Virus record (IMG/VR): IMGVR_UViG_3300012017_000779
Span: 18,179-82,178 of that record
Strand: one strand, 5' to 3'
Source of the DNA: a virus
Length of the DNA stretch: 64,000 nucleotides
Shown here: piece after piece, positions 6,001 through 59,619 of the stretch
Numbering within the stretch: position 1 is the first letter of the stretch
Layout of the letters: each line of letters begins with the position of its first letter
The notes under the pieces: model-generated
Database searches by the model: none
Seen by the model: the letters and a program-made list of their open reading frames with translations, nothing else
Told to the model about the DNA's origin: nothing
Translations under genes and position numbers: made by a program

Positions 6001-9000
6001 ATTGACCTCCATACCAAGTTTTTTATATATACCTTTTGAGAATATATTTTTTTCTTTAATAGGATTATAATAATATTTTTTAAGCTCACTTACTTTATCA
6101 TTAAAATATTTTTTAATTTCATTTTGAATATTATTTTTTAAATCTGCATTATCTTTTTGTTTTAAAAGTTCAAGTAATGTTGATATTGTATCTTCTTTAA
6201 CAGCTAACTTATATAATTCATTTTTAGTTTTATCAGATAATAAATTATCAAATGCTGAAAATACTTCACCTGCATAAACATCTTTTCCTTTTACTTTTTT
6301 TACTACTTGATTAAATCCACTTATTTTTAATAATTCATCTCTATCAGGACCTTTGAATTTTTTTATTCTATCAAATTCACTTTCTATATATTTTAATAGA
6401 TAACCTTCAATAGCATATGTTTCACCAGTATTTTCTTGAAAAGTAAACATTATTGGATCAACAAAAATATTATCATCAGTTCCTTTTGTTCCATCTGCAA
6501 GAGTTGGTTTAAGTAAACCTCCTTTCACTGTTAAACCAAAAGACATCTTCTTATCTGCTGTTCTTCCTAACTCAGCTTTACCATTAAGAAGCATCATATT
6601 AATATCCTGTATAAATTTACTAAAAGGGTCTAATTTAGTAGTTATTGTTCCTGAACCATCCATTTCAGAAGTACCATCTATTACAATTAAATTTAAATTT
6701 TTGCCTTTAATTTTAACTTTATCAATACCAAATAAACTCTGAAACATTACAAGATTCTTAGTAAAAGCATTTATTTTTGGATCTAAAAAATTCATGTGAT
6801 TAAGAATAGGATTTTTACCATTCCATAATTCATCTTGTTTAGATACAGAATTTATTGCATATAAGTTATTTGTAACTGAACTTGCATTCATTGTTTCATA
6901 TGCAACATTACCATCAGCTCTAATTACAGCATTAGTTGAACTATCAAATCCATATTGAGATTGAAGTTTTGCTAAATTTTTTATTTGTGTATTTTGTTTA
7001 ATAACATTTACTTTATCTATCTCTGGTAAAATATTTTTAGGAATTTCTTCTTTTAATATTTTTATTGGATTTTCTTTAAAGTCTTTTATATATTTTTTTT
7101 GTAAAGCTGTTTTTTGTGGAAGTTTATCAACATTATTAAAGGCATTTAAAATTCTAAATATATATTTTAATCCATAAGGTGTAGAATTATTTTTTAATTC
7201 ATCTTTAATATTATTATTATTGGCTAATCCTATTCCTATGGCATTTGCAAATTCTAATTGTTTATTAATATCAAGTTCATTTTCTTTTGTTTGTTTAAAT
7301 TCACTAACAACTTTATCTAAATTTAAATTAGGGACATTAGCTACAACATCTATAAACTCATTATAAATACTTAAACTATTAAATTCAGATATCCATTTCT
7401 CAATAATAGAAGAAGTTTCCATAGAAAGTTCAATTACTTGAAAGTTTACAGTTTCATCACGGGATGCAACTAATTGTACATATTTAACATTAGGTTTTCC
7501 AAAATCATTAAAAAATGATACACTTAAGTCATACTCAAAAGTATTTGTAGTGTTAGGTTCAGGATATTTTTCTTCAAAGAATTGTTTTAATTCTGGATAT
7601 TTTTTATATTCTTTTTCTAATTTTTTATATGCTTCATCTCTATCTGATATATTACCAATTATTGCATATAACATATTAAATATATCTGAAAAATCAGCTC
7701 TTTCTTTAAATCCAAATCTATCAACAGGTGTGCTAATATCTCCATTTTTGTTTCTAACAACTTTAAATAAAGATTTTATTACATATATAGTTTCTTTAGA
7801 TAACATGTCCTGAAGTGATATTTTTCCAGGTACAGCATCTATTGTTAATTCATCAACTCCTTCTTCTTGTTCTGTTTCTTCTTTTGCATCTACTGCAATA
7901 TCATATACTTTTTTTGAAGTTTTAAAATCACTATTTTCTGAATGATATTTAATTACACCTGACCCTTTACTTCCCCAGTTATCAAGTGTTGTTTGTAGTA
8001 TTCTTATATTATCAAGTATAACAGATTGTTCCGGACTTAAAACAGTTTCTGATATAGAATCAGTAATTAATTCTGTATAATTTTCAGTTACACCTTCTAT
8101 TTTATTAAATTTTTCTTGTTCTTTCTTAAGTTTATCTTCTAGAATTTTTTTAGTTTCTCTATACAAATATTCTTTTTGTTCAATACCTTTTAAAAATAAA
8201 ACATTAGCTGCTTTTAAATTTTGTTTTCCAGCTGCTTTTCTTTTATTATATATGTCACTTAATAGTTCAGCCCATATATTATCTATTGTCATGGTTACTT
8301 CTAAAGAATCTTGATTACTTAATATATCTATAGAAGGATTATTAACTTTTCTAATTCCACGGTCAAGTTCATATAAAATAGCATTTTCTATTAAAGGTTT
8401 ATAACTATTAATCTCTCCTATATATAACTTATTAAATAAGTCTTTTGCCATAGGAGAATTCATGCTATCAACAAGTATATCTTTTTTAGAAAAAACATTT
8501 AGTTTACCAAATAATGCTTTTAAAAAATTAAGCATTTTTCTAAACAAAGTATTTTTAACTGGTGTCTCAGGACTTGGCTTTTGATTTTTAGCATAGTTTC
8601 TAAAATCTTCAGCTAACATTTCTTCTAACTCTAAATAAGATTTATTTATATTTGGTTTATTCCCTTTTGAATCAGTATAATTTCTTAATTCAGTATATAA
8701 TTTAATTTTATCTTGAGGAGTCAAAAACAATTGTGAAAATATATGCCATGCTTCATGATACAAAGTAAGATTTTGGAATATATCTCCTTGTTTTCTATTT
8801 ACTGCTATAGTTGCTAAACTTCCATCTGGATTAGCTATTTTACTTGCATTAACTATAAATGTTGCATAAACATCTGAATTAACTAAGTTAAACACTTGTT
8901 TAAAAGAAATTACTTTTCTTAATGGTTCAAGTGCTTTACTATTCCACCAAGTATTGATATCTTCAAGTTGTTCTTGAGTTATTTTTTCTTTTTTAAATCC

Positions 9001-17200: not shown

Positions 17201-18224
17201 AATTAGTAAGATTAGATGTTTTAGCATTTTGAAATGATCTTCTAGCATTATTTACTGGATTAAGAAAAGAACCTACTGGAGTATCTAAAAGATAATTTGC
17301 ATCTTTCCAAAATGAATTTGCACTTTTTAAATTATTTAAAGACTGTACAGTTTGTACTGTATTTTCTGCATCTTTAGCAAACTTAAGTCCTTTTGCTGCT
17401 TTATATACATTACTTAAAGAATTTTTTGTAGCTCCTAAAAAACTTAAACCTCCTGTTACCGGAGCCAAAAGACCAGCAGCAATTTCTTCAGTTACTATTT
17501 CAGAAATAATTCCTGCAGTATAACCAAAGTTCATAAATGTATTACTAAAAAAAGGAACTAAACCTTTTTTAGTAGATGTACCAATAGCAGCTGCTTCTTC
17601 ATATTCTCTAGCATCATCTAAATCACCACTAGTAAAATCACCATGAACCATTTTTAATAAACTTTTTGGTCCAGCTACAAAACCTCTTGTAAATAATGGT
17701 ACAAAAGAATGTGTTAATTGTCTACCAAAGTCTTGCCATGCAGAAGTGTTTTCATTAAAAGTAGATTCATTATCTTTCATAGGATTAAATCCTATTTTAT
17801 CAAATGTTTCTGTTCCATATGCATAGTATCTTTTAAAGTGTGCATTTCCACTACTTCCAGCATTATAAGAATATAATTTTGCAGTTGAACCTTTTTGTTC
17901 ATGTGATTTTGATAAAGATGTTAAATAATTCTTAATTAAAGAAACTTTTTCTCTAGGATCTATACCTTTACTATTATATGCAATACCACCTTTTTTTGGA
18001 GGTGTGCCTACAATATATTTTCTTACATTTTTTGATTGATTAACTAAACCTTTTGGAACTAATGGATTTTCTAAAGCAGGAGGATTTGCTTTACCAAAAT
18101 CAATTGGATCACCTTCAAATGGAGTATAATTTTTAGCATCTGGATTAAGAGAATTTATACTTCCAACAGCAGGTCCTAATGTATCAAGAGGATTAAAACC
18201 TTCTTCATTGTTATTTAATGCCAT
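11208..18224 (-). CDS. Giant ejection/cargo protein (2338 aa) with hydrophobic segments, a GNAT-like cassette and a PD-(D/E)xK nuclease domain
   Basis: Lies directly upstream of the vRNAP. Gly/Ala-rich hydrophobic stretches (AAGLLAPVTGGLSFLGA; GFFMGTLGGG), GNAT motif A (IDGISANEVGKGQGSKMF), and nuclease motifs IAGEIDLIVVD...IIDIKTG...LQQAVY. Confidence 0.8.
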   Translation of the reverse strand: MALNNNEEGFNPLDTLGPAVGSINSLNPDAKNYTPFEGDPIDFGKANPPALENPLVPKGLVNQSKNVRKYIVGTPPKKGGIAYNSKGIDPREKVSLIKNYLTSLSKSHEQKGSTAKLYSYNAGSSGNAHFKRYYAYGTETFDKIGFNPMKDNESTFNENTSAWQDFGRQLTHSFVPLFTRGFVAGPKSLLKMVHGDFTSGDLDDAREYEEAAAIGTSTKKGLVPFFSNTFMNFGYTAGIISEIVTEEIAAGLLAPVTGGLSFLGATKNSLSNVYKAAKGLKFAKDAENTVQTVQSLNNLKSANSFWKDANYLLDTPVGSFLNPVNNARRSFQNAKTSNLTNLATAFKTAGGFYQDVRSINAAISESRLEAGMVQDKVYNNKYDQFYLRNKRAPTNEEQEDMTKVSVKSGLETFYKNAGLIYGTNKITFGNILNKGGIKNYFKNATQDIMNVSHKSFGTIGKVLYDKTAKQFLYQSSVGYQGFKNLAKSWMKQPLSKSVLGSIKYFKSNFSEGFQENAQEIIARANEKWYTDSYNSPYLKASLFNNAVNSINLKNNSGTPLSIYNEELNKEFSAQGFETFASGFFMGTLGGGMNKTFSLLQNAYGRIFDKAGYKAWTEQKEAVTNTLVNELNKIDINDLLSNRYVNAGSQDTLSLIKEQANTKESKDAELDSLINQVSTMIKTGSSEIFQDKLKSLRDVSDEALQEELKFDDLKDAERYRLKIDKTINKIDSIKEAYETVSENFPNPINNDNMPDRSDPNYVEAAALRNGWDVAVKNIVYANEAFKDVANRISSIKQTYLKNSTLKNVSSSKISPLFQVKLLADSINSFELELDMLKKGVKSKTSTTIESDKIKINDLEEEISTLKEFKTSYDAFNRFTNRSEYTKEVQEELQQDTEQDITAEDIEEKMSKLYGKEDDEEKMIELLSNLKKSHDSYLRTLAKAQDTNIFSTELDDAFVQLVDFYKLNKDSRNLASHIELLSDPENFYGLVRKNTEWSKRLYKNRKKYFRDLVKQEIANIESNALLNAMADEGLYMSANDYSDWQTLRTRPSEFFNSIDGEVYKIDTVKYNEIYDKYLSKDRDLKAKSKFSEVSNVIADYTEELVKLEEKKQNELDLLEKTVTQIPEESIELKGNAKSISIKNVDEILNNNSYIELTPKNSETTIILYKDDQGVLRYNDETGDVYDLNDKTRFTENKVYSEELIPDPIKVTEIENRYAKEKLDIIKNFETSKSLTDLEFEDPYIIGESDFKAMSDGLKDKLYKDFQTTLPSKTTEDKINAPDASSKAFQDWVNTDASAKTIIDEFNKDIELISEFTFQNNDKTVNTNDLSTNQIIAVVNEKSKELNKLREELSKLKEDDPNYNIKKLEIETLSEETKKLLKVNKSRSLQERTTPQKKVIKEIEKLIALNKSVQKDYVLTEDDPVTGLKKGDKAYLIDNLVHRRVTNAIQAYLEKYEYSSYKLVEKSYDDTIRKNGLNEASVDAFIKLLKDGGASGINDKLFTELSKDIKSFITSNVVNNKIESLNNQIKSLKEDIALSKKAKNKDRVKTLNADLKTLTAKLTALGTTDTKADIEYLGTPEISKIEIGTINNIVINGDLYQFKTKDGLISGVMISPTEFRIDGISANEVGKGQGSKMFETLIRYLKAKGVKTLKTESAGEGAIKMHNKAVDKGLLTKVKEDGRFAIFTINNTELAALDTTVETDINNEELFDKVLNLISEKSYEDGRVAGNYVDLIKDYFQYGKKPEFDEKIISKKAYEELFNDDTGYIVQLGKKFKDEGYYIVGNNLVVWDSNIVTEEGKKDRIAGEIDLIVVDKKGNAFIIDIKTGSKSKWTNFNSLTNSFDNKKYSKRNEYTLQQAVYRELLKRQTGVETEIGLLPIERESDKETDQIISAKKPLAAGLAKEVIYEFDDDGKVKKNKFKDPKGDKDFEEKIFKTGPNNAINDVFIPLSLESVAEEIDDLLAPKDDEGAQSFSFESPDIKQTSQEVQLLKNKNAVIINSYKKDLENSQISLDKLENILKSITIPDISNIAISNAFIADRLKVSEDGDNKFKNYYDKHKSFEDSTKPPHENQLMAAKILNATKIITDVEYQSIESQDLNMAEVSELIHNAVIRIEYLIANDTSNAQEFKVYQKTLFSYMGQSSFHMNLQDTVNVLGNLNKTNYNSLLTNEILKLTNKLQYAKIDFQKKNILGSIEKLTNLKDNLLSLYGEVKEEFVSPIEVNSRYFKNNKDYTQVTVMKVDGDKITIKGNRKNSKESIVNTKDLLNKDLYLTSEDIENLKSEESTYEANESEKTILKEVQNTTDTFINSTEDKNKATEIGLKDNITKIEDDLLTKIKNCQ
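13138..13555. repeat. 22-bp imperfect direct repeats (13138-13159 and 13534-13555) flanking the GNAT-like cassette
   Basis: gtatctaaagcagctagttctg vs gtacctaaagcagttagttttg (19/22 identical), 396 bp apart and in frame; they encode TELAALDT and AKLTALGT. Confidence 0.6.
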
Positions 18225-21281: not shown

Positions 21282-23930
21282 TTAATAATTAGGATATACT
21301 GTATAAACATAACCTCCATACTCAAAGGATTCACCACCATATTTATGATTGTCCATATAAATTTTAATACAATTGTTTAAAGCATTACCTGATTGATCTT
21401 TACAATGTTCTTCTGCATCTTCATAAGTATTTTTTCTTTTTGTACTATCAAGTGTTTTATCAGTTGGAGTATATGTTACTCTTCCACCTGGTCCAGCATC
21501 AGTTTGATAGTTAGGATACATTTGATTAAGAGCATCAGTTTTCCATTTATTAGTTACTGCAGTATTATAAGCATTTCTTAAGTTTTGTCTACCTTGTAAC
21601 TTAGCATTATCAAACTGTTGATTAGCAATAGTATTTTTATCAAAAACTCTATTTGCCATTTGTTGGTTTAACATAGATTCTTGATTTCTTATACCTACTT
21701 GTGTACCTTCAAACTGGTTTGCTATGTTTACATTCTGATTATTTATATTACTCAAAGTATTTGCAGCTTGTGCAGCAGCATTTCCTTGAGTTGCAGCATT
21801 TCTGGCACCTAATCCTTGAGCACCTGCAAAAGATGCAGAAGCTTGAGAAGCAATATTTGCTTGTTCAGATTGTGCACCTAATTCTCTTGTAGGATCTAAA
21901 AATGTAGGTCTTGGTTCTTCAAGATCAACTCTTGCTTCCCATGGCATATACTTTTTAATACTTGCTAAATCAGATACAGCACCCATAGTATTTACATTAT
22001 CTTGTAACCACCATTCAGCAGGTTTTCTTTCACCAGGTACAACTTTATCAGTAGTTGTAGTAGTTGAATCTTCTTTAGTTTTTTCTTCTGTAGTTTTTGT
22101 TGTTTCATAACATGATGCATCATCAGCTATACAATTTCCATCTTTATCTACTGGAGCTTTTTTAGTATTACCTTGAGCATCTTTATATATACTACCATCA
22201 GTTTTTTTACAAAGACAAGGATCTTTTGCTTCATCTGGTAACTTTTCAAAATCAAAATTTATAGGTGTTCTTGAAGATGTAAAAGCTCCAAAATCAGAAT
22301 CAATTCCTTGTCCTGATGTGTTGTCAAAACCAAAATCACTTATAAGACTAGACTTTAAATTAGTTAATTCATTTTCAGTATAGGCTGGTCTTCCAGAAGC
22401 AACTTTTTTAGCATTAAGTTCTTTTACTTTATTAGGTATATAATCATTATTAATCCAAGTTTGAAATTCTTTAACTTTAGGATTATTTTTTCCTGGTCCA
22501 CCTGGCTTATTTATTTCTTCTAATAATTCAGCATATTCTGGATATACTCCATCCCATTTAGCAAAACTTGTTAAGTTTTTTTCAGCATTTCCAAAACCTA
22601 TTTTAGAAGGTTTTTGAACATCCTCATATTCATCAACACCAACAGCTTCATCATTAAGTTTAATACCATATTCTTTAGTATAATCAGTTTTTGACTGTTG
22701 TTTTGTTTTATTTTTTTTATCACCAGGACCACCTACAACATACTTAGGCATACCACCATAAGCCATTTCATATGGATCATCATAAAAAGGCATATCATAG
22801 CCACCCATAGACATACCATAAGCTGCCATAGGAGCTTGTTGCATCTGTCTTGGATCTTGTTCTTGTCCACCTTGCATTTGTTGCATAACACCCATTACAA
22901 GTTGTTGTACTTGATCTTCAGGCATTCCTAATTCTACAAAAATTTGTGCAATTGCTTCAGGAGGAACTTGACCTTGCAATAACTCAACAGTTAACTCTTC
23001 AGGTTCAGCACCTTGTTGTAAAGCCTCTGCAACTTGTTGCATAATCTGCATCATTTGTTGATCTTGACCACCTTGTTGTGGTTGCTGTTGAGCTTGTTGT
23101 TGTTGCATCATCATCATTTCTTCTTCAGATGGTTGTTGCATTCCTTCTTGAGCTCTTCTTAATCTTCTCATTCCACCATATCTCATCATTTCTTCTTGTG
23201 ATTGTGCAGTTGGTTCACCATTAGGCATTTCCATAACTTCTTCTTCCTCTTCTTGAGGCATGTTATTATTATTAGATTGCTGTTGACCTTTTGGATTTTC
23301 TTTTTTAGGAATTAAATCTTCTTCAGTAATACCATTAGCTTCCATGTATGGTTCAGATAATTTAGGGATTCCTTGAGGAAATCCTTTTTTAGATTCCTGA
23401 GCAAGAGCAAGAGCACCTAATTTAATAACATAATTTTTAATCATCATTTCAGCAGTTTTTATATCTAACTTATCTGAATTACGATCTTGTAAAATTTCTC
23501 TATATCTATTTATATCAAATTTTTTAGACATTTCTGCAGGAGTATAACCACCTTTTTTTGTAGGCATGTTAAACATTTTTAATAATACCGGATCATTAAT
23601 CATCATAGCTTTGGTATCACTAAAAATAAAACTATCATCTGGAAGATTTAATGGTACACCACCTTTAGTATGTCTTGGACCTTCTATATTAAAAAATGAA
23701 GGAATTTTACTGCCATCTATATTACCTATTACAGTTTCTCCACCTTCAGCTTCTAAGTTAGCATCTTTTCTAGGTACCGCAGTTATACTTTTAGTAACCT
23801 TGATATTAGAATGATCTTTAAAATTAGTGTTGCTATCACCAAATGATGACACATCATTTTTTAAAGAACCATCTACTTGATAGCCAACTTTTGCTTTTGG
23901 TAAAGATTTTATTCTTACTTTATAGTACAT
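21282..23930 (-). CDS. Internal cargo protein (882 aa) with Gln/Met-rich low-complexity tracts and xxxxGG motifs
   Basis: N-terminal EAEGGETV...GPRHTKGGVPL...FIFSD block typical of crAss-like cargo proteins; Ala/Gln/Asn-rich coiled C-terminus. Confidence 0.65.
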   Translation of the reverse strand: MYYKVRIKSLPKAKVGYQVDGSLKNDVSSFGDSNTNFKDHSNIKVTKSITAVPRKDANLEAEGGETVIGNIDGSKIPSFFNIEGPRHTKGGVPLNLPDDSFIFSDTKAMMINDPVLLKMFNMPTKKGGYTPAEMSKKFDINRYREILQDRNSDKLDIKTAEMMIKNYVIKLGALALAQESKKGFPQGIPKLSEPYMEANGITEEDLIPKKENPKGQQQSNNNNMPQEEEEEVMEMPNGEPTAQSQEEMMRYGGMRRLRRAQEGMQQPSEEEMMMMQQQQAQQQPQQGGQDQQMMQIMQQVAEALQQGAEPEELTVELLQGQVPPEAIAQIFVELGMPEDQVQQLVMGVMQQMQGGQEQDPRQMQQAPMAAYGMSMGGYDMPFYDDPYEMAYGGMPKYVVGGPGDKKNKTKQQSKTDYTKEYGIKLNDEAVGVDEYEDVQKPSKIGFGNAEKNLTSFAKWDGVYPEYAELLEEINKPGGPGKNNPKVKEFQTWINNDYIPNKVKELNAKKVASGRPAYTENELTNLKSSLISDFGFDNTSGQGIDSDFGAFTSSRTPINFDFEKLPDEAKDPCLCKKTDGSIYKDAQGNTKKAPVDKDGNCIADDASCYETTKTTEEKTKEDSTTTTTDKVVPGERKPAEWWLQDNVNTMGAVSDLASIKKYMPWEARVDLEEPRPTFLDPTRELGAQSEQANIASQASASFAGAQGLGARNAATQGNAAAQAANTLSNINNQNVNIANQFEGTQVGIRNQESMLNQQMANRVFDKNTIANQQFDNAKLQGRQNLRNAYNTAVTNKWKTDALNQMYPNYQTDAGPGGRVTYTPTDKTLDSTKRKNTYEDAEEHCKDQSGNALNNCIKIYMDNHKYGGESFEYGGYVYTVYPNY

Positions 23931-27926: not shown

Positions 27927-27958
27927 TTAATATACTAAATTTTAATTTATTCAATAAA
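27927..27958 (-). promoter_or_regulatory. Putative promoter TTTA-N20-TATATTAA upstream of 27909
   Basis: Shares tatatatttaatatactaaa exactly with the 40997 site; the palindrome TAAACTTA-A-TAAGTTTA (27955-27971) overlaps it. Confidence 0.7.
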
Positions 27959-38691: not shown

Positions 38692-39747
38692 TTATATAAC
38701 TCTAGTGTTTCTAAAACTTCTTGGATGTTCATTATTTGGTCTATGACTTGTAAACATATCATAATATTTACTATGCATAGCTCTTCTATTTGTCCACCAA
38801 ATTTCTTCAAGTTCACTAAAGTTTGGAGTATTAACTAAACTAAGTGCTTGATTTCTAGCAGCTTTTAATCTACCTTCTATTATCTGCATTCTTTGTGCAA
38901 CATCTTCACCATTCATTAATAAGTTTTCAAGAATTCTTGCTTTAAATGCATATTCATAATATTCATTTATAAGATCATGATCAGGAACTAATAAGTTTCC
39001 ATTATCATCTTCCATAGCTCCTTGATAATTTAAATAAACTTTACATGTGTCTAGTGTAGTAAATAAAAAACCACCTTTTATCCAACCTTCATCTAAAGTA
39101 TTTACATATAAATTTGGACAGTCACAAGAAATTTCTTGACTAGTTTTCATTCTTAATGGAAGAAGTGTACTATAGGTTCTTGTTTGTCCAGTATTTACTA
39201 TTTGAATAAGTTCAGATTTTTCTCCTTTACAGTTCATAAAAACTCTTGGCCTTATACAAGTATCTCCATAAGGATTAAGTGGATCATATGAGCTAGGAAT
39301 AGTTGGTGTGGGACATTCTGCAGCACAAGAATTAGTAGGACATGCTGCAGTATGATTACATGGATTAGAATTACATGTAGAACAGTTAATTGTAATAGGT
39401 GCACATACATTTACATTAGCTGGAGTTTCAACATAAGGTACTTCTTGTATATTAGTTCCACCAACCATTCCATTGTATCCTATACTTTCAGTAAATTCAC
39501 CACATAGTAATGCATAATTAAATACATAAAAGTCATCTGGTAATTTTACTCTACCATGACATACTTCTAATACAACTTCTTTAGTTTGATTAATTCTTAA
39601 ACCTAAATCATAGTTTAATTTTTTAGCTAACTTGATAAGCTGTTGAGGCTCTATCATGTTTTCTAATGCTAAAGTATTAAAGTCTATTGATACATCTTCT
39701 AAAACTGAGTCAAAAGTTCTGTACCGTAGTGTATAATTAAAGTCCAT
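38692..39747 (-). CDS. Tail ring/tube protein with a Cys-rich insertion (351 aa)
   Basis: GRVKLPDDF...VYLNYQG...DDNGNLLVPD pattern of crAss-like ring proteins; adjacent to the muzzle gene. Confidence 0.7.
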   Translation of the reverse strand: MDFNYTLRYRTFDSVLEDVSIDFNTLALENMIEPQQLIKLAKKLNYDLGLRINQTKEVVLEVCHGRVKLPDDFYVFNYALLCGEFTESIGYNGMVGGTNIQEVPYVETPANVNVCAPITINCSTCNSNPCNHTAACPTNSCAAECPTPTIPSSYDPLNPYGDTCIRPRVFMNCKGEKSELIQIVNTGQTRTYSTLLPLRMKTSQEISCDCPNLYVNTLDEGWIKGGFLFTTLDTCKVYLNYQGAMEDDNGNLLVPDHDLINEYYEYAFKARILENLLMNGEDVAQRMQIIEGRLKAARNQALSLVNTPNFSELEEIWWTNRRAMHSKYYDMFTSHRPNNEHPRSFRNTRVI

Positions 39748-40409
39748 TATCTAAGTGTATTTTGACTATCATCAGGTCCATCTGTTGGAATTGACATAGT
39801 CATAGTTAATTCTTTTATTACAAATTGTTCTACTTCAGAAAATAAATATTCTGGTAATGAGAAAGGTTCATCTTGTCTTACTGTACATTCTTTTGTATCA
39901 CATGTTTCAATAGTTCCTTCAAAGATTGCTTCCATTCTTATTGCTTCCCAATCTACATTAGGACAATATATGTAGCCATCTAAATACCAAAAATAAAAGT
40001 TTCTATTATATTTCCAAGTTGTAGTTTTAGTCATAGAAACCCAGGTACCTGGATCTGTTCTAAACATTTCTATACTACCATCTATTGAAGATGTGGTACG
40101 TATAATAGGTCCTGCCATTCCATTTAATATTCCTGGAATCTTTTCTTTTGATCTTTTAAAATAACAACCTGAATATACTCCAAGACAACCAGCTTCTACT
40201 TTATCTACATCTATTAATTCTATATAAGGAAGAACTCTAAATAAAGAACTAATTTTCATTAGTCTAAATTGATTGTCTTCTCTTTTAATTAATGTTTGTG
40301 AATATTTTAATAAAGATGAATATATTATTCTATCAGTTAAAAAAGCATCTTCTTTAACAGCTTTTAATGTATTTCTTACTCTTGATATTGTTTCACCAAT
40401 TGTTGTCAT
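39747..40409 (-). CDS. Tail ring/tube protein (220 aa)
   Basis: Y(F)WYLDGYIY, AIFE and the C-terminal PTDGPDDS pattern; translationally coupled to both neighbours. Confidence 0.65.
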   Translation of the reverse strand: MTTIGETISRVRNTLKAVKEDAFLTDRIIYSSLLKYSQTLIKREDNQFRLMKISSLFRVLPYIELIDVDKVEAGCLGVYSGCYFKRSKEKIPGILNGMAGPIIRTTSSIDGSIEMFRTDPGTWVSMTKTTTWKYNRNFYFWYLDGYIYCPNVDWEAIRMEAIFEGTIETCDTKECTVRQDEPFSLPEYLFSEVEQFVIKELTMTMSIPTDGPDDSQNTLR

Positions 40410-40987
40410 AAGTTAGAGTCATTATATTGTTTTAATGCTAATTCAGCTTCTTTATTTTTTCTATCTCTATATACAGCTTTACTGTATGTTAAGTTTAATT
40501 TTTTTGTAGCATCTACTACAATATACATATTCCAGTTTTCTGGATAAGTTTTAGCTACACTTCTTTTAAAATTTCTACATGCAGTAAATCCCCAAAACTC
40601 TCTATTCTTTATTTTATGTTTAGGAGCATGATTAGTAAAAAATATTTTTGCTAACTTACCATCAGTCTCCCAATTATTATTTGATACTGATACTCCGTAC
40701 TTTAAAGATTTAGCATAGTTTACATTTTGTTTTTTACTTTGTTGGCATGTTCCTATAAATAACCAACCTATTGATTCAGGTAATTGAACACCATCTCTTA
40801 CATCAATTACTTTATTGTATACAGCATAATTAAATTTTTTTATAATGTTTTTTAAATCAGAATTATCTAAGTCTTTATATTTACTATACTTTTTTTTAAA
40901 ACTTTCAAAAAATTCTTTATTCAAAACATTATATACAGCTGGTCTAAATCTTGGAGCTGTAACATCTGGTTTTTTAAATTCTCTCAT
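40406..40987 (-). CDS. IHF/HU-like DNA-binding protein of crAss-like phages (193 aa)
   Basis: Basic protein with GVQLPESIGWLFI and FWGFTACRNFKR; position before the ring/muzzle genes matches the crAss IHF-like genes. Confidence 0.6.
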   Translation of the reverse strand: MREFKKPDVTAPRFRPAVYNVLNKEFFESFKKKYSKYKDLDNSDLKNIIKKFNYAVYNKVIDVRDGVQLPESIGWLFIGTCQQSKKQNVNYAKSLKYGVSVSNNNWETDGKLAKIFFTNHAPKHKIKNREFWGFTACRNFKRSVAKTYPENWNMYIVVDATKKLNLTYSKAVYRDRKNKEAELALKQYNDSNL

Positions 40988-40996
40988 ACTATATAT

Positions 40997-41028
40997 TTAA
41001 TATACTAAAAATTACTGACATGAACAAA
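40997..41028 (-). promoter_or_regulatory. Putative promoter TTTG-N20-TATATTAA upstream of 40987
   Basis: Best match to the Bacteroidota -33 TTTG / -7 architecture; lies immediately after a terminator. Confidence 0.7.
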
Positions 41029-41042
41029 TGTAAAGATACTAT

Positions 41043-41078
41043 AAAAAAACAAAACCCCCACAAGTGCGGGGGTATTGT
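41043..41078 (-). terminator. Intrinsic terminator after the tail fibre gene at 41127
   Basis: Minus strand reads ACAATACCCCCGC-ACTT-GTGGGGGTTTTGT followed by a T tract. Confidence 0.85.
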
Positions 41079-41115
41079 CTTGTTGCCACAGTAACCAACA
41101 AACTGTAACTTCTTA
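41043..41115 (-). ncRNA. Candidate 3'-UTR-derived small RNA (hairpin with UUGUUGGUU loop, then the terminator)
   Basis: GUUACAGU-UUGUUGGUU-ACUGUGGC (41109-41085) forms an 8-bp stem with 2 GU pairs; the loop is complementary to the AACCAACAA leader motifs. Confidence 0.4.
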
Positions 41116-41126
41116 TAAAATTTTTA

Positions 41127-42782
41127 TTATCCTACTCTTCTAATAGCCCACTCTATATTATCACCAAGAGTACGTTGTTCAGTATAAGCCACACCTGTTA
41201 AATTTTGTATTTTTAATACTATTTGAGTTCCTACAGATATAGGTACACCTTGCATACCACCTGTCATATAAATTTTATCATAATAAAATTCTTTTACAGC
41301 AGTAAAAGTATCAGCACAATAAATAATTGCTGCACCTGTTATATCTGTTATACCAATAGTAAAAGTTCCTCCTACTTGACCCCACCCATATGTATTTGCA
41401 GGTGAACTTAAATATACATTATAATTAAGATCATATTTGCCTGTTTGAGGACATGTCCAAACTCCAGTAATTTGATTATATTGTGAAGTAACATTTACTC
41501 CATTTTCTATTTCATATTGTATAACACCATTAGTAGTATCAAATACTACAGTAGTACCTAAAGAAATATTTGAATTAGGTTTATTAAAAGTTAAACTAGG
41601 AAAACTATCAGGGCTAATATAACCTCTAAAAGCTGTACCAAATAAACCTGCAGTAGTTTGAATAACATTTCCAAGTGCATCTGTAGATAAACTCCATGCA
41701 GCAGTACCTATAAAATTATTAGGAGTACCATAATTATTTAATTGTAATTGTCCAGTACTTTTTAAAGTTAGTTGATCTTGAAGTGTATTATTAGCAGATA
41801 CTTTACTTTGAATAATAAATTTAGATGAAGTAGCAGTTACATTTGTATTAACAACTGTTTTAGATACTAATCTATTTGTTACAACAGGTTCTGTTAATGA
41901 AGATGGATTTCCAAATTCAATAGACACCCCAGATCCTGCTGTAGTATTACCTTTATTTTCAACACGTATTGCACATGCATTAGCATTTCCTGCTGAAGTA
42001 ATAGATGTAGGTTGAATTAATAATGTTGGAATAGTTGTTGCTGGAATACTTGAATTTTCTACATTAGAATTTGATATTAATCCTAAAGCTTGAGTTCCTG
42101 ATCCTGCAGTATTAGTAGATGTAATTTGTACAACAGGTGTATTTAAACCAGAAACATTAGACTTTGCTAATATAGCTTGAGAATTTGTTACTGTATTATT
42201 AACTACTAATGTTGCACCAACAGAACCAGATTTATCTAATGTTAATGTAGGTACTGCACTACTATTTATCTTTAAAGCAAATCCATTATTAGTAATAGTT
42301 GTATCTTGAACTAAAGGACCTCCAAGTTGAATATTATTTACAGTTTTTGTTAATCCATTGTTTGCTGTTACTGGTGTTAAACTTACAATTGCATCACAAA
42401 AATATAATACTATTTGTTGTAAAGCTGAATTAACACCAGAACCAGCTGTTACGACTACATCTTCACTACATAATATTTCTGGCACATCACTATATGTAGT
42501 ACAAAAATATTCAACTAAATCTTCTAATAAGTCTGTCCATGTAGAATCTGATGTTATAACAACATCTCCATTACACTCAATGTCTGGACCATTGTATATA
42601 ATACAATCTGAACTTAATACTTCTTGACAAGGTATAGGATCCGGACATCCTGCAGGAGTTGGACATGGAGGAGGACTAGTTAAAAAACTATCCTTACATC
42701 CACATTTTGCACATTTGTTATTACAACTACTGTAGTTATGATTACAACTTGTACAAGTACTATTAGTGTTATTACAGCTCAT
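41127..42782 (-). CDS. Tail fibre/spike protein (551 aa) with Cys-rich N-terminus and C1q/TNF-like C-terminal domain
   Basis: SSDCIIYNGPDIEC head, ANNGLTK..NIQLGGPL fibre motif, beta-rich body, and YNQITGVWTCPQTGKY. Confidence 0.7.
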   Translation of the reverse strand: MSCNNTNSTCTSCNHNYSSCNNKCAKCGCKDSFLTSPPPCPTPAGCPDPIPCQEVLSSDCIIYNGPDIECNGDVVITSDSTWTDLLEDLVEYFCTTYSDVPEILCSEDVVVTAGSGVNSALQQIVLYFCDAIVSLTPVTANNGLTKTVNNIQLGGPLVQDTTITNNGFALKINSSAVPTLTLDKSGSVGATLVVNNTVTNSQAILAKSNVSGLNTPVVQITSTNTAGSGTQALGLISNSNVENSSIPATTIPTLLIQPTSITSAGNANACAIRVENKGNTTAGSGVSIEFGNPSSLTEPVVTNRLVSKTVVNTNVTATSSKFIIQSKVSANNTLQDQLTLKSTGQLQLNNYGTPNNFIGTAAWSLSTDALGNVIQTTAGLFGTAFRGYISPDSFPSLTFNKPNSNISLGTTVVFDTTNGVIQYEIENGVNVTSQYNQITGVWTCPQTGKYDLNYNVYLSSPANTYGWGQVGGTFTIGITDITGAAIIYCADTFTAVKEFYYDKIYMTGGMQGVPISVGTQIVLKIQNLTGVAYTEQRTLGDNIEWAIRRVG

Positions 42783-42794
42783 TATATTTTATTT

Positions 42795-45353
42795 TTATAA
42801 ATCTCTAAGTTTTACAATACCAACTCTTATAGCATCTGCACTATTATAACCTCCACCAGCATAATTTGTTCCTGACAAATTTAATACTCTAAAAATTACT
42901 TCATCTCCAACATCTAATAGTACTGTACATTGTGCATTAAGTATTATATTACTATCCATACTTGCAACAATACTTTTTGAACTACCTGTAAATATATTTC
43001 TTGAATTAGTACCTCCACTACATATACCTATATCAAAACGTCCATCTGTTCCAGATGTTTTCCAATAAGTATTACTATTGTCATCTGCTTTTAAATAACA
43101 AGACATAGTTAATAAGTATTCTCCTTTTTTAGTTATTTCAAATATTCCAGTAGTATTATCAACAGTTACAAATGTAGAAGTTGGAACAGTTGATGCTGGA
43201 GTTGAATTACCAACATACTCAGTTCCTCCTCCATAAGTAGCACTATTAATATTTACAACAGTTCCATTTGAATCCATATAAGTATAATTTAATACATCTT
43301 GAACTCTATTTGATACTGAATAATTATTTCCCCCAAAAGCTACTGTTTTACCGGGAGCATTTGCTACAGTATTTATTGTAGCTGTTGCAGTATTAGAACT
43401 ATAAGCACCTCCAATAGTAACCTGTGCATTATAATAATCTAATCCTTTACTGTTAACAGCATAAGTAGTAGTAGTTCCTACAGTATTAGATGTAACATTT
43501 ATATTTGTTCCACCCTCAACTACTGATAAACTTCCTGGAGGAACTTCTACAGAAAGACATCCTTCAGAAGTTACACTTAAGTCTAAAGAACAAGATGTTA
43601 TTTGTCTTAATACTAAAGACTGTGTAATAGGATCCCATGACTCAATTAAAGATTCTGAACTACAATTGGCTGAACCTCCACTTAATACAGAATTTAAATC
43701 ATTTTCAAATTCTACAGTTGTAAATGTAAGCAATCCTGTTCCAGAATCTACTGCTTTATTAAGTATTGATCCCCATCCATAATTCCATAAACCTTGATTT
43801 GCAGCTATATAGGGATTAGATCCAGCTCCAGTAGGTGTTACACTTCCAAAAATTGGAATAGTATAATTTGCTCCAAATGCTCCACTTAAACCACCTAATG
43901 TAATATCTGTATTATTTGTAGCTGCATAAGCATGAAGTAAAAAATTTTGTTCAAGAACAGTACCATTATATGCTGGATATACAACAGCATTAAAACTAGT
44001 CCAATATGTAGTATAATCTGTTACAAATGTATTGTAGTTACTAGTATATGTAGAAGTTGGTTGAGCAGGACTAAATAAAGAAGCAGGAGAAGCAGCACCA
44101 TGATAGTCAGCTTCAGATTCATTTACAAATGCTACAAATAATATTGCAGTAGGTCCAGCCCATCCAGGTCCATAACTTGGAGGAACTACAGCTCCTATTG
44201 TAGTACCATCTAAAGGATTTAACCAAGTAAAAGCTGCAGCTGAAGTACCTGTTTTAATTATATTAGGGTGGTTTAAATAATTTTCAGTATACGATTCATA
44301 AATATAAATTTGACCAGTATAACTTGGATTTGCTGCAGTATAATTTACCCACCACTGATAAAGTGCTGAACATACTATTTGTTTATTTTGTGCAGCAGTT
44401 GGACCAGATCCACTATATGGGCCAGAAGTAGTATCTATATAACCATAAACATCAGCATCATTTGAAATACCAAGTGCACAATCAGTTTCAGTAATTGTTA
44501 AACCAATTTGATTATCTAAATAATTATAAATATCACAAAGTACTACCCAAACATTACTTAAAGAAGCTGCAAGATTATTTTCTGTAGTTTGCCAATATGA
44601 ATTCCAATTTGGATTTGCAGAATATGTAGTACCTGTAGATAATTGTATATCTGTATTTAAAATACATTGTGATAATACAGCATCAATTAAAGATGCTGGT
44701 AATGCAGTTGCATCTAATAAAGCACAATATCCATAATCATCATCATTAATAAGAATACTTAATAATTGATCCATAGGAACTGCTGGAGAACCCGTGCCTC
44801 CAATTTGCGGACTATTTTGTAATATACAATCACTAGCAACAGTTGGTAAAGTAAATGTTGGTGGAGGAGTATTTTCTAATATTGTAACTCTTATATCTAA
44901 TTCATTAAGTGTATTATTAATTATAGCAATTTGATCTAAAATATTACAAATTTTTAATCCTATTGCTGTTACATAATCTATTAATGTCATTACAGTAACT
45001 CCATTAACTATAAAACAAGGTGCTACAGTTATTAATACATCATCAGATTTACCAGTTGTATCTGCACCTGTTAAAGACAATCCTTGTAATAAACAAATCT
45101 GTTCTATTAAAAATTGTAACAGTTCTTGATAAGTTTCTGGTTTACAACCAACTAAATTAAAACAAGAAAGATCATAATTTGTAATAGATAACTGATCCAT
45201 TACTGTTGCTAATTCAGTTGCAAGACTTGCTATAACATCTGAAATAGTATCTCCTGTACATAATTTAATAATATGTAAATCAGGTCCTTGCCAAATAACA
45301 CAGTTAGATGATATTGGACTACATGGTGAGTTATCGTAATTTAATGGTTTCAT
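42795..45353 (-). CDS. Tail fibre protein (852 aa) with Cys-rich N-terminus, possible vWA-like middle domain and C1q-like C-terminus
   Basis: SSNCVIWQGPDL is homologous to the head of the 551-aa protein; coiled segment; DNTTGIFEITKKGEYLL. Confidence 0.7.
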   Translation of the reverse strand: MKPLNYDNSPCSPISSNCVIWQGPDLHIIKLCTGDTISDVIASLATELATVMDQLSITNYDLSCFNLVGCKPETYQELLQFLIEQICLLQGLSLTGADTTGKSDDVLITVAPCFIVNGVTVMTLIDYVTAIGLKICNILDQIAIINNTLNELDIRVTILENTPPPTFTLPTVASDCILQNSPQIGGTGSPAVPMDQLLSILINDDDYGYCALLDATALPASLIDAVLSQCILNTDIQLSTGTTYSANPNWNSYWQTTENNLAASLSNVWVVLCDIYNYLDNQIGLTITETDCALGISNDADVYGYIDTTSGPYSGSGPTAAQNKQIVCSALYQWWVNYTAANPSYTGQIYIYESYTENYLNHPNIIKTGTSAAAFTWLNPLDGTTIGAVVPPSYGPGWAGPTAILFVAFVNESEADYHGAASPASLFSPAQPTSTYTSNYNTFVTDYTTYWTSFNAVVYPAYNGTVLEQNFLLHAYAATNNTDITLGGLSGAFGANYTIPIFGSVTPTGAGSNPYIAANQGLWNYGWGSILNKAVDSGTGLLTFTTVEFENDLNSVLSGGSANCSSESLIESWDPITQSLVLRQITSCSLDLSVTSEGCLSVEVPPGSLSVVEGGTNINVTSNTVGTTTTYAVNSKGLDYYNAQVTIGGAYSSNTATATINTVANAPGKTVAFGGNNYSVSNRVQDVLNYTYMDSNGTVVNINSATYGGGTEYVGNSTPASTVPTSTFVTVDNTTGIFEITKKGEYLLTMSCYLKADDNSNTYWKTSGTDGRFDIGICSGGTNSRNIFTGSSKSIVASMDSNIILNAQCTVLLDVGDEVIFRVLNLSGTNYAGGGYNSADAIRVGIVKLRDL

Positions 45354-45368
45354 AAGTTTACTATTAAT

Positions 45369-45400
45369 ATAATATACAAAATTTTATTAAGACTTGCAAC
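45369..45400 (-). promoter_or_regulatory. Putative promoter GTTG-N20-TATATTAT upstream of 45353
   Basis: Same motif and spacing as the other five sites. Confidence 0.6.
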
Positions 45401-49515: not shown

Positions 49516-49722
49516 TTATTTTATAAACTTTCTTAAAGCTTGTCCTCTTCTATGAGGAGTTATTTTTGTTTCTGTTTCTATAGTTACAGAAGGTTGATTA
49601 ACAACTTTTATTTGTGATTCATAACTATTTAAACAGTTAGTACATACTTGAACTCCATTAGATGCATTTCTTCTTTGGCATCCACAAGTTAAAGTTTGAT
49701 TACAATTTGAACATTGACTCAT
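49516..49722 (-). CDS. Small Cys-rich, probably metal-binding protein (68 aa)
   Basis: CxxC-x5-CxC-x11-CxxC; fills the intergenic gap and has an AACCAACCAA leader. Confidence 0.7.
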   Translation of the reverse strand: MSQCSNCNQTLTCGCQRRNASNGVQVCTNCLNSYESQIKVVNQPSVTIETETKITPHRRGQALRKFIK

Positions 49723-49741
49723 TTGGTTGGTTTTTAAAAGT

Positions 49742-56578: not shown

Positions 56579-56619
56579 CTTGTTTGTTGGTTTTTAGTTA
56601 GTAAAATTGAGTAATTATT

Positions 56620-56651
56620 AAAAAAAAAGGAGGAGCTCCCTCCTCCCTTTT
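56620..56651 (-). terminator. Intrinsic terminator after the major capsid gene
   Basis: Minus strand reads GGAGGAG-GGAG-CTCCTCC followed by T9. Confidence 0.85.
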
Positions 56652-56670
56652 AGTTTAATCTTATTTTCTA

Positions 56671-58317: not shown

Positions 58318-59565
58318 TTAAAATTTTCTAAAAATATTAGTATTTCTAGATATTGTTTTTGGTTCTCTTGATGGAGTCCTTGTATATTTCTCATCTTCAT
58401 TAGTATATGATGATGTATTTTTTCTAGACTCTTCAGTTTTTAATTGTCTTACTGTTTTTTCAATTGCTGCTTTACTTCCTTGATCTCTTACTTTAGTTTT
58501 GTATCCATCTGGATCTGCAAGTAACCAAAGTGCTTCTGCAATTAAATCATGTCTTGGTTCTACAAACTGATACTTTTCTAACAAGTGTCCTAACATGTTT
58601 GTAGGTTTACCTGAAATTGAAGGGTAGTTAGGTTGAACTAATCCTGAGTAAAGCATATTTTGTATTTTCTTATCTATTTTAATTCCTCCAAGTTCAGCAG
58701 TTATTAATGTATTATATACATTATCTGTATATAATTTTGCTTGCTTTTGTTGTTGTTCTTTTTTTTGTTCTTGTTCTGCTAATTGTCTTGTAATAATTTC
58801 TTCTTGCATTCTATCCAACTTTGGTTTGAATTGATTAGCTTTTTGTTCTAATTTATTAACATCCCTCCAGTCTTCAATTTCTTCTTCTATTTCTTCTGCA
58901 GTTCCAAAATTTGTAGCATATAAATATTGTCTTGCTATTTCTGCTTGGTCATTTTCATTTGCAGGATCTAATTCTATTATTTCTTCTACATATGCTAATG
59001 TTCTAAACAGTCCTTTTAAATCTTGTCCTCCATCTGCTACATATTTTGCAGCAACTTGAAGTTCTTCTGGTAAAGCATTAAAAAATTCTTTTGGAGTACT
59101 CTCTCTTATTTTATTTTCCCTATCTTGAAAATTTGCTTCAAATAGTTCTCTAAAATCTTTTGTTGTATACTCTTCTAAATCTTTATCATCATCAAAAGGA
59201 ACTAAAGCTCCTTCTTCTATCATCTTAGTTGCTAGGTCATAAAGTCCTGACTTATCAACTTTAGGTCTACCTTTATTACCAGCATCCTCCTCTTGTGAAA
59301 TTAGATTATCTAACTCTGCAAAAGTTTCCTTTACTTCTTCAATTTCTTTTGCCTCTTCTTTTGAAACAGGCTTGTCAAGGAACGTAATGTCTATATTTTC
59401 TTTAGAAAACATAGACTTGGGTTTTTCTTCTAATTTACCATCTGATGGAAGCATAACATTTTCTGCTCCCGGCATTCCAAATAGTTCATCAATATTTACA
59501 TCTACTTGTTCTACCGTTGTAGAATCTTGTACTTGATTTTCATCAGTTTCATTGTTGGTTTTCAT
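58318..59565 (-). CDS. Acidic scaffold-like protein (crAss gene-77-like, 415 aa)
   Basis: Acidic, coiled-coil-rich ORF between portal and MCP with a basic C-terminus. Confidence 0.6.
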   Translation of the reverse strand: MKTNNETDENQVQDSTTVEQVDVNIDELFGMPGAENVMLPSDGKLEEKPKSMFSKENIDITFLDKPVSKEEAKEIEEVKETFAELDNLISQEEDAGNKGRPKVDKSGLYDLATKMIEEGALVPFDDDKDLEEYTTKDFRELFEANFQDRENKIRESTPKEFFNALPEELQVAAKYVADGGQDLKGLFRTLAYVEEIIELDPANENDQAEIARQYLYATNFGTAEEIEEEIEDWRDVNKLEQKANQFKPKLDRMQEEIITRQLAEQEQKKEQQQKQAKLYTDNVYNTLITAELGGIKIDKKIQNMLYSGLVQPNYPSISGKPTNMLGHLLEKYQFVEPRHDLIAEALWLLADPDGYKTKVRDQGSKAAIEKTVRQLKTEESRKNTSSYTNEDEKYTRTPSREPKTISRNTNIFRKF

Positions 59566-59587
59566 TTTGTTGGTTTTTGTTTATAAT

Positions 59588-59619
59588 TCAATATACAAAT
59601 TAAACTTGAAAGATTTAAA
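59588..59619 (-). promoter_or_regulatory. Putative promoter TTTA-N20-TATATTGA upstream of the scaffold-MCP unit
   Basis: Same motif and spacing; contains the imperfect inverted repeat TAAACTT..AAGATTTA. Confidence 0.65.

Follow-up and report, generated by a model that had tools for sequence, protein, structure and literature searches.

A conserved 3′-UTR hairpin in an uncultured crAss-like phage, a candidate RNA regulator with a loop complementary to head-gene start regions

Downstream of a putative tail-fibre gene in an uncultured virus, the transcript is predicted to fold into a small hairpin followed by an intrinsic terminator, and the loop of this hairpin is the exact complement of a short A/C-rich box at the start of virion genes in other parts of the genome. 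The locus raises the question of whether loop and boxes meet as RNA and, if they do, what this does to the genes that carry the boxes. An earlier reading of the letters alone (here called the sequence-only reading) had proposed a seed-loop small RNA that controls the translation of box-led genes in trans; the comparison of related genomes described below partly supports that interpretation.

The window, by which we mean the whole stretch of DNA analysed, comprises 64,000 nt of IMG/VR record IMGVR_UViG_3300012017_000779 (record positions 18,179–82,178; the record is 82 kb long). Its G+C content is ~28%, its large genes are all on the minus strand, and no tRNA genes were found in it. PHROG matches in the window include a portal and a major head protein, Pfam CrAss_Ring_2 matches at 39747–40409 (E = 3.6e-23) and CrAss_Ring_1 at 38692–39747, and giant proteins are encoded downstream in the window (ORF map), so that the signature virion proteins of crAss-like phages lie in one co-oriented block. 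The ring-protein Pfam matches, the portal and head PHROGs and the giant downstream proteins together assign this uncultured freshwater virus to the crAss-like phages. No GenBank phage matches the window at the DNA level, and none matches the 193-aa protein encoded downstream of the hairpin; a search for distant relatives with P0155 gave no match in viral contigs. The nearest cultured phage by capsid protein is Leptolyngbya phage Lbo-JY46, whose identity of just 28.5% makes it too distant for the transfer of transcript data.

The element and its immediate surroundings are laid out as follows.

41127–42782, minus strand: 551-aa variable gene, putative tail fibre or receptor-binding protein, from the ORF list; its 3′ UTR holds the element
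41102–41109, minus strand: 5′ arm of the seed hairpin, GUUACAGU, from the fold and the comparison of variants
41093–41101, minus strand: loop and proposed seed, UUGUUGGUU (9 nt), from the fold and its conservation
41085–41092, minus strand: 3′ arm of the seed hairpin, ACUGUGGC, from the fold and the comparison of variants
41073–41084, minus strand: 12-nt spacer AACAAGACAAUA between hairpin and terminator
41043–41072, minus strand: intrinsic terminator from the fold, with CCCCCGC at 41072–41066, loop ACUU, GUGGGGG at 41061–41055 and a U-run to 41043
40998–41011, minus strand: promoter-like box TTTTTAGTATATTA before the 193-aa gene (ATG at 40987), conserved in 80 relatives, of putative function

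The hairpin (41109–41085) has 8 bp, in order G-C, U-G, U-G, A-U, C-G, A-U, G-C and U-A. It stands between the stop codon of the 551-aa gene (41129–41127) and the terminator, where the sequence-only reading had placed it, and both the coordinates and the fold agree with that description. For the minus-strand RNA the folding energy is -31 kcal/mol (z = -4.2). Folding of both strands also bears out the earlier claim that the stem, with its two G-U pairs, is particular to one strand: the same stem does not form on the plus strand, because these two pairs are G-U. The loop begins with UUUG and fits Y-U-N-R, a resemblance to U-turn loops in sequence alone, and it is predicted to be unpaired with a mean probability of 0.93 (51 variants, folded as isolated 70-nt RNAs). 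An alternative fold exists, in which AACAA of the spacer is able to pair with UUGUU of the loop. RNAalifold on alignment A1 favours this alternative, pairing UUGUUG of the loop with the 3′ arm and AACAA (41073–41101) and hiding part of the loop; in one genome (G007) the alternative helix between the loop and its 3′ flank reaches 9 bp. On these folding models, the RNA could have two states, the alternative being one with a hidden seed.

The element lies on the same strand as a coding gene and downstream of it, and it ends at that gene's own terminator, as 3′-UTR-derived small RNAs do; the same arrangement was seen in all clades examined. No conserved promoter directly upstream of the hairpin was found among 80 relatives, and the stop codon lies 1–15 nt from the hairpin in many of them, so the RNA must correspond to the 3′-terminal part of the fibre-operon transcript, either intact or after processing. 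In Rfam, no family reaches its gathering threshold, the best being rnk_pseudo with 30 bits against 55. An attenuator, in which the 3′ arm of the hairpin competes with the 5′ arm of the terminator, was considered and set aside, since inspection by eye showed no conservation of the short complementarity among relatives. As a mimic of 16S rRNA the loop would probably fit poorly, the nearest conserved 16S stretch having an extra G and sitting in a helix.

How far the element is conserved was judged from relatives of the 193-aa gene, of which there are 107 in IMG/VR; 80 of these, at 61–71% identity, were compared. The wider family of the 193-aa protein spans roughly 480 protein clusters. The loop 9-mer is exact in 78 of the 80, and the remaining two have a small insertion after UUGUUGG. 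The loop columns are invariant in alignment A1, which together with the predicted absence of pairing describes a conserved single-stranded seed. Around this loop the stem varies and still pairs, a combination that the sequence-only reading had named as a check on its proposal. In a set of 48 distinct elements, 97.6% of the hairpin's helix cells are paired, and the stem changes are, with few exceptions, A/G transitions opposite U (A-U to G-U). Such transitions keep pairing only in the sense RNA, and the pattern is therefore that of a sense-strand RNA helix. The terminator helix is 100% paired in the same 48 elements, with both sides changed in 4 of 7 pairs, and so combines a G+C-rich stem, a following U-run and compensatory changes. 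With distant clades included there are 24 stem haplotypes of 7–12 bp, all still paired, among them such divergent arms as GUCCACG/CGUGAC, CAGG/CCUG, GUCAUG/CAUGAC and AGUUGCA/UGUAACU. The loop core is retained in clades in which the identity of the neighbouring protein is as low as 31% (31–51%), and the spacer varies among relatives. Searches with a covariance model detect a single copy in each genome (~120 kb).

Complements of the loop were located in the window at the following start regions.

59567–59575, minus strand: box AACCAACAA of the scaffold-position gene (415 aa, 58318–59565), ending 1 nt upstream of its ATG; exact loop complement
59552–59560, minus strand: second AACCAACAA, within codons 2–5 of the scaffold gene; near-tandem duplication of box and ATG
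56584–56592, minus strand: box AACCAACAA of the 338-aa gene (next after the major capsid protein gene), 5 nt upstream of its ATG; exact
49724–49732, minus strand: variant box AACCAACCA with one mismatch, 1 nt upstream of the start of a 68-aa Cys-rich gene (49516–49722) that heads the block ending at the hairpin

The three exact copies and the one-mismatch copy had already been named in the sequence-only reading, which overlooked a fifth at 21668–21660; this further AACCAACAA is inside an 882-aa ORF, far from any start codon, and is probably there by chance. Leaders of this genome are A-rich and have no Shine-Dalgarno (SD) sequence, and AAAAACCAAC occurs only in those of the scaffold, 338-aa and 68-aa genes. 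At the scaffold start (59552–59578), AAAACCAACAAAATG is followed by AAAACCAACAATG, so that box and ATG are nearly duplicated, with the second ATG out of frame; some close relatives have AAAG at this start and have thereby lost the second ATG. The 68-aa product is Cys-rich (CxxC and CxC patterns), and its orthologues of 45–70 aa are kept across clades with the box nearly always present. For the 338-aa protein there is no match in Pfam, PHROG or PDB sequences, and a Foldseek search with its AlphaFold model (pLDDT 70.6) gave no hit at E ≤ 0.001. The capsid gene is followed at 56625–56655 by a strong intrinsic terminator (GGGAGGAGGGAGCTCCTCC and a T-run), which relatives conserve with compensatory changes, so the 338-aa gene either opens a new unit or needs read-through.

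Within this genome, five matches to the loop complement were observed against 1.24 expected, and 1 of 100 shuffles reached five. When the loop was compared with 48 start regions, the scaffold, 338-aa and 68-aa genes ranked 1, 2 and 3, and 79 of 2000 composition-matched shuffled loops fitted start regions equally well (single-genome p ~0.04). We also scored 88 intergenic hairpins (that strand, whole record): within the window, only this loop has a start-region complement of at least 8 nt. Its complement, of 10–11 nt, is the longest among the 88 hairpins and contains C; elsewhere in the record, the longest chance-like loop matches are 8–9 nt and mostly A+T. Taken alone, the single-genome signal is only modestly beyond chance, and the case is therefore carried by the comparative data.

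These data show the motif concentrated just before the starts of the same orthologous genes, which answers the earlier suggestion to examine its occurrence near start codons. The leader ...AAAAACCAACAAA-ATG, or one very close to it, is retained by all 29 scaffold homologues (72–98% identity). Of 80 homologues of the 338-aa gene, nearly all retain AACCAACAA, and most have it twice in tandem in the interval from the capsid-gene terminator to the ATG. In relatives, the box at orthologues of the small Cys-rich gene is exact, unlike the mismatch variant here. The sense-strand 9-mer precedes the ATG of the scaffold, 338-aa and small Cys-rich orthologues by 10–16 nt in four genomes that are complete or large. 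Among 84 arrangements of A6C3 that we checked, only those overlapping the box motif recur in leaders. The capsid-gene leader, taken as a negative control, gives ~-5.5 kcal/mol with the loop against ~-12 for the targets. The boxes hold their distance to the ATG and not to the promoter-like boxes described below.

Other clades were sampled through homologues of the 338-aa protein (46–74% identity), and their hairpins were found beside the 193-aa homologue or one gene from it. In a clade of nine genomes the loop reads UUUAUUGGUUUU or UUUUAUAUUGGUUUU, a change of G to A. Two of these loop-A genomes, G013 and G035, have AAACCAAU, the matching change of C to U, in the leaders of the scaffold gene, the 338-aa gene and the small gene, and no C-type box was found on these genes in the loop-A genomes. 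When start regions are ranked for fit to the loop, the same three genes come top in G035 and are among the top six in G013. A sister genome, G011, has G in the loop and U in the boxes, giving a G-U pair, and in the 338-aa protein tree it stands just outside the loop-A clade (support 96/94 and 94/86). Read along this tree, the series from G-C through G-U to A-U is a classic two-step compensatory path, but it is one single event.

Four other lineages have matching loop and box changes of their own, of which three are detailed here. In G006, a 17-nt loop GCUUGUUGGUUUAGGUA matches ACCAACAAGC before the scaffold gene and CCUAAACCAAC before three other genes, with duplex energies of -18 to -24 kcal/mol; none of 2000 shuffled loops matched as well. 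An extra G in the loop of G016 matches an extra C, in AAACCAACCAA, before the small gene, and in G008 the loop end UCU matches AGAAACCAACA. Poor fits were also seen: three genomes with the standard loop have a 338-aa leader without the box, and in one subclade the 338-aa leader reads AAACCAAA against loop A. The target sites are conserved and show compensatory change, the switch being one event. Because loop and box change together in other clades, direct RNA–RNA pairing, as the earlier reading had supposed for the loop and the leader motif, gains support, and it appears likely that loop and boxes do pair as RNA. Outside the switch from G-C to A-U, the evidence is mostly joint invariance, which cannot prove pairing.

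The explanation we favour is an RNA module of two hairpins, ~65–70 nt long, that would form as the 3′ end of a transcript through the tail-fibre genes. Its first hairpin would show the unpaired and nearly invariant loop, with core UUGUUGGUU(U), and its second would be the intrinsic terminator. The loop would pair over 9–11 bp (~-12 kcal/mol) with the A/C-rich box (A)AACCAACAA(A). Its predicted targets are three virion genes, which encode the scaffold-position protein, the 338-aa protein that follows the major capsid protein and the small Cys-rich protein. Since the phages have no Shine-Dalgarno sequence, the box lies where the leader has to be single-stranded for the 30S subunit; pairing would then most likely block initiation and lower synthesis of the target proteins as fibre-operon transcripts build up. 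As a whole, this appears to be the best explanation of the sequence comparisons, with a probability that we put at roughly 0.6. Its parts differ in strength. Repression is the most likely outcome of pairing because the box lies 1–5 nt from the ATG in an SD-less leader, where pairing should block the 30S subunit; translational repression is nevertheless proposed tentatively, at a little under even odds. We infer that the RNA accumulates, whole or processed, and that pairing takes place inside the cell. The fibre transcript may be far rarer than the scaffold mRNA, and stoichiometric repression would then be hard unless the fragment is stable. The wider proposal, of a dedicated riboregulator family in environmental crAss-like phages in which an anti-leader loop and a box in the SD place of fixed head-assembly genes co-evolve along a wobble path, has in our judgement an even chance of being right. 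If it is, the phage would own an RNA switch for late protein synthesis in hosts that ignore Shine-Dalgarno sequences.

Promoter-like sequences have a place in one of the rival explanations and are given here as observations. A promoter-like TTT(A)GTATATTA box precedes the 193-aa, 1322-aa, 852-aa and scaffold starts by 10–35 nt and is strongly conserved in relatives; its positions, all on the minus strand, are 40998–41011, ~27930–27950, ~45370–45400 and ~59585–59600. Distant clades have TTTTGTAAATTATA at its place. The TTT(A)GTATATTA box may be the promoter type of these phages.

If the pairing is real, its outcome could still be something other than repression in trans: a contact in cis within one transcript, from the leader of the small Cys-rich gene to the terminal hairpin, protection or activation of the target, or a role of the boxes as a sponge for the hairpin. 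The sequence data are silent on the direction of the effect, the 68-aa gene with its box variant heads the block that ends at the hairpin, with no terminator-like gap noticed between them on the ORF map, and the loop of G016 fits the box of the small gene best. Against a general contact in cis, the scaffold and 338-aa genes are in other transcription units, with a strong terminator after the capsid gene, and at least those contacts must therefore be made in trans. A box ending 1–5 nt from the ATG is moreover the usual site at which pairing by small RNAs blocks the ribosome, and we consider these other outcomes unlikely. The box might instead be a double-stranded DNA site, an operator, promoter or initiator for a phage factor or RNA polymerase, of which the hairpin holds an inverted copy and whose copies all move together when specificity shifts. 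Such a site would likewise predict concerted change of all copies; the boxes do lie near promoter-like TATATT or TTTGTATATT, and the hairpin copy is ~80 bp upstream of the next promoter-like box. A DNA site does not account, however, for an inverted copy that is always in the loop of a varying yet pairing stem, dependent on G-U pairs that exist in the sense RNA only and always followed by a terminator, nor for boxes with constant spacing to the ATG and none to the promoter-like boxes. In G011, G in the loop and T in the box would be two different DNA sites, but form a wobble pair as RNA, and in G006 one half of the loop is matched by some genes and the other half by others. A role as a DNA site is accordingly hard to sustain, and we give it a low probability.

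Box and hairpin may, on the other hand, have nothing to do with each other, the box being an unstructured translation enhancer for strongly expressed genes in a host that does not use Shine-Dalgarno sequences, the hairpin a stabiliser of the 3′ end, one component of a compound terminator or the target of an RNA-binding protein, and their complementarity a matter of chance. All leaders here are A-rich and SD-less, and shuffled U/G-rich loops often find complements of 8–9 nt in such leaders, as the single-genome p of ~0.04 reflects. Yet a loop of 9–11 nt that is invariant across proteins down to 31% identity, and is the exact complement of an equally conserved box, makes chance unlikely; each of the matches in G006, G008, G016 and the loop-A clade would need one more coincidence, and in G006 no shuffled loop out of 2000 matched as well. 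Chance complementarity is consequently very improbable, and pairing between loop and boxes, with repression in trans as its proposed outcome, remains the reading we prefer.

Base-pairing small RNAs derived from the 3′ UTRs of bacterial genes, of the CpxQ, SroC, DapZ and MicL type, are the closest counterparts. Like them, the element follows a coding gene and shares its terminator, has a short conserved single-stranded seed and has several predicted targets at start regions. It differs from them in its source, a lytic-type crAss-like phage with its own virion genes as predicted targets; in its seed, which is held in a hairpin loop where theirs is a processed 5′ end; and in its targets, which are SD-less and have the box in the SD place. 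Among phages, the c4 antisense RNA of P1 and P7 (immI) has exposed loops that pair with boxes at the ribosome-binding region and block translation; it is cut from the 5′ part of the operon it controls and governs immunity (icd/ant). The present element is likewise phage-encoded, small and structured, with an exposed loop complementary to short boxes at phage start regions, but its position is 3′-terminal in a late structural operon, its predicted targets lie 8–18 kb away in other units, and we found no sequence or Rfam relation between c4 and the element. The CopA, Sok and RNA-OUT class uses YUNR U-turn recognition loops and is cis-encoded and fully complementary to a single target. Here too, a loop of 9–13 nt on a moderately stable stem is the proposed first contact for a linear target, whereas the element is trans-encoded with a short match to several targets.

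Translation starts in Bacteroidia show Kozak-like preferences for A. Their start regions are A-rich and Shine-Dalgarno-less (PMC9976891). The phage leaders are similar in being A-rich without an SD sequence, with the box where an unstructured leader is needed, and dissimilar in that the AAACCAAC box occurs at only a few phage genes and is matched by a dedicated complementary hairpin. The leader motif is absent from a paper on phage ribosomal protein S21 (PMC9723584), and no report of such an element was found in the literature. On the sequence comparisons, the element would be of a known kind, a terminator-ended RNA with a seed for start regions, in a new setting made up of a crAss-like phage, a loop-held seed, a box in the SD place and a head-assembly regulon. 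CrAss-like phages are among the most abundant in guts and waters, and their presumed hosts initiate without Shine-Dalgarno pairing; to our knowledge, almost nothing is known of translation control in these phages. If the favoured explanation is true, this would be the first RNA regulator described for crAss-like phages, with a defined seed and a three-gene regulon. The element would then also offer a directly testable case of control at SD-less starts, for which the natural series of G-C, G-U and A-U pairs supplies ready compensatory variants.

Twenty metatranscriptome runs, mostly from lake water, share 6–13% of sampled words with this sequence. Four runs compared over 38700–45400 have low cover at 40940–41163, as seen in Logan contigs, which give no RNA ends, strand or level and may include DNA carry-over. 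RNA-library contigs from three lake-water studies cover the ring-protein and 193-aa genes (38700–41025) at 95–99% identity. This suggests that close relatives are present in lakes and are perhaps transcribed there, although contigs cannot prove transcription.

The gene upstream of the hairpin has a history of its own. The 551-aa protein has no match in Pfam, PHROG or PDB. Relatives (L001, L002 and L004–L083) keep ~94 N-terminal residues of this protein together with the intergenic element, and the same relatives have unrelated C-terminal parts, or quite different genes, at its position. As judged from these alignments, the gene before the hairpin is a swappable fibre cassette and the hairpin marks its downstream edge; because it adjoins the swappable gene, the hairpin is a sharp marker of the cassette boundary. 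Many other clades have an extra conserved gene between the hairpin–terminator and the 193-aa homologue (for instance L233 (G008), at ~6200–7600, and L315–L330), and the hairpin is therefore linked to the end of the fibre block and not to the 193-aa gene. The product of this extra gene ends in ...YYHYHNKW/F.G....L.....KG....F.Y.
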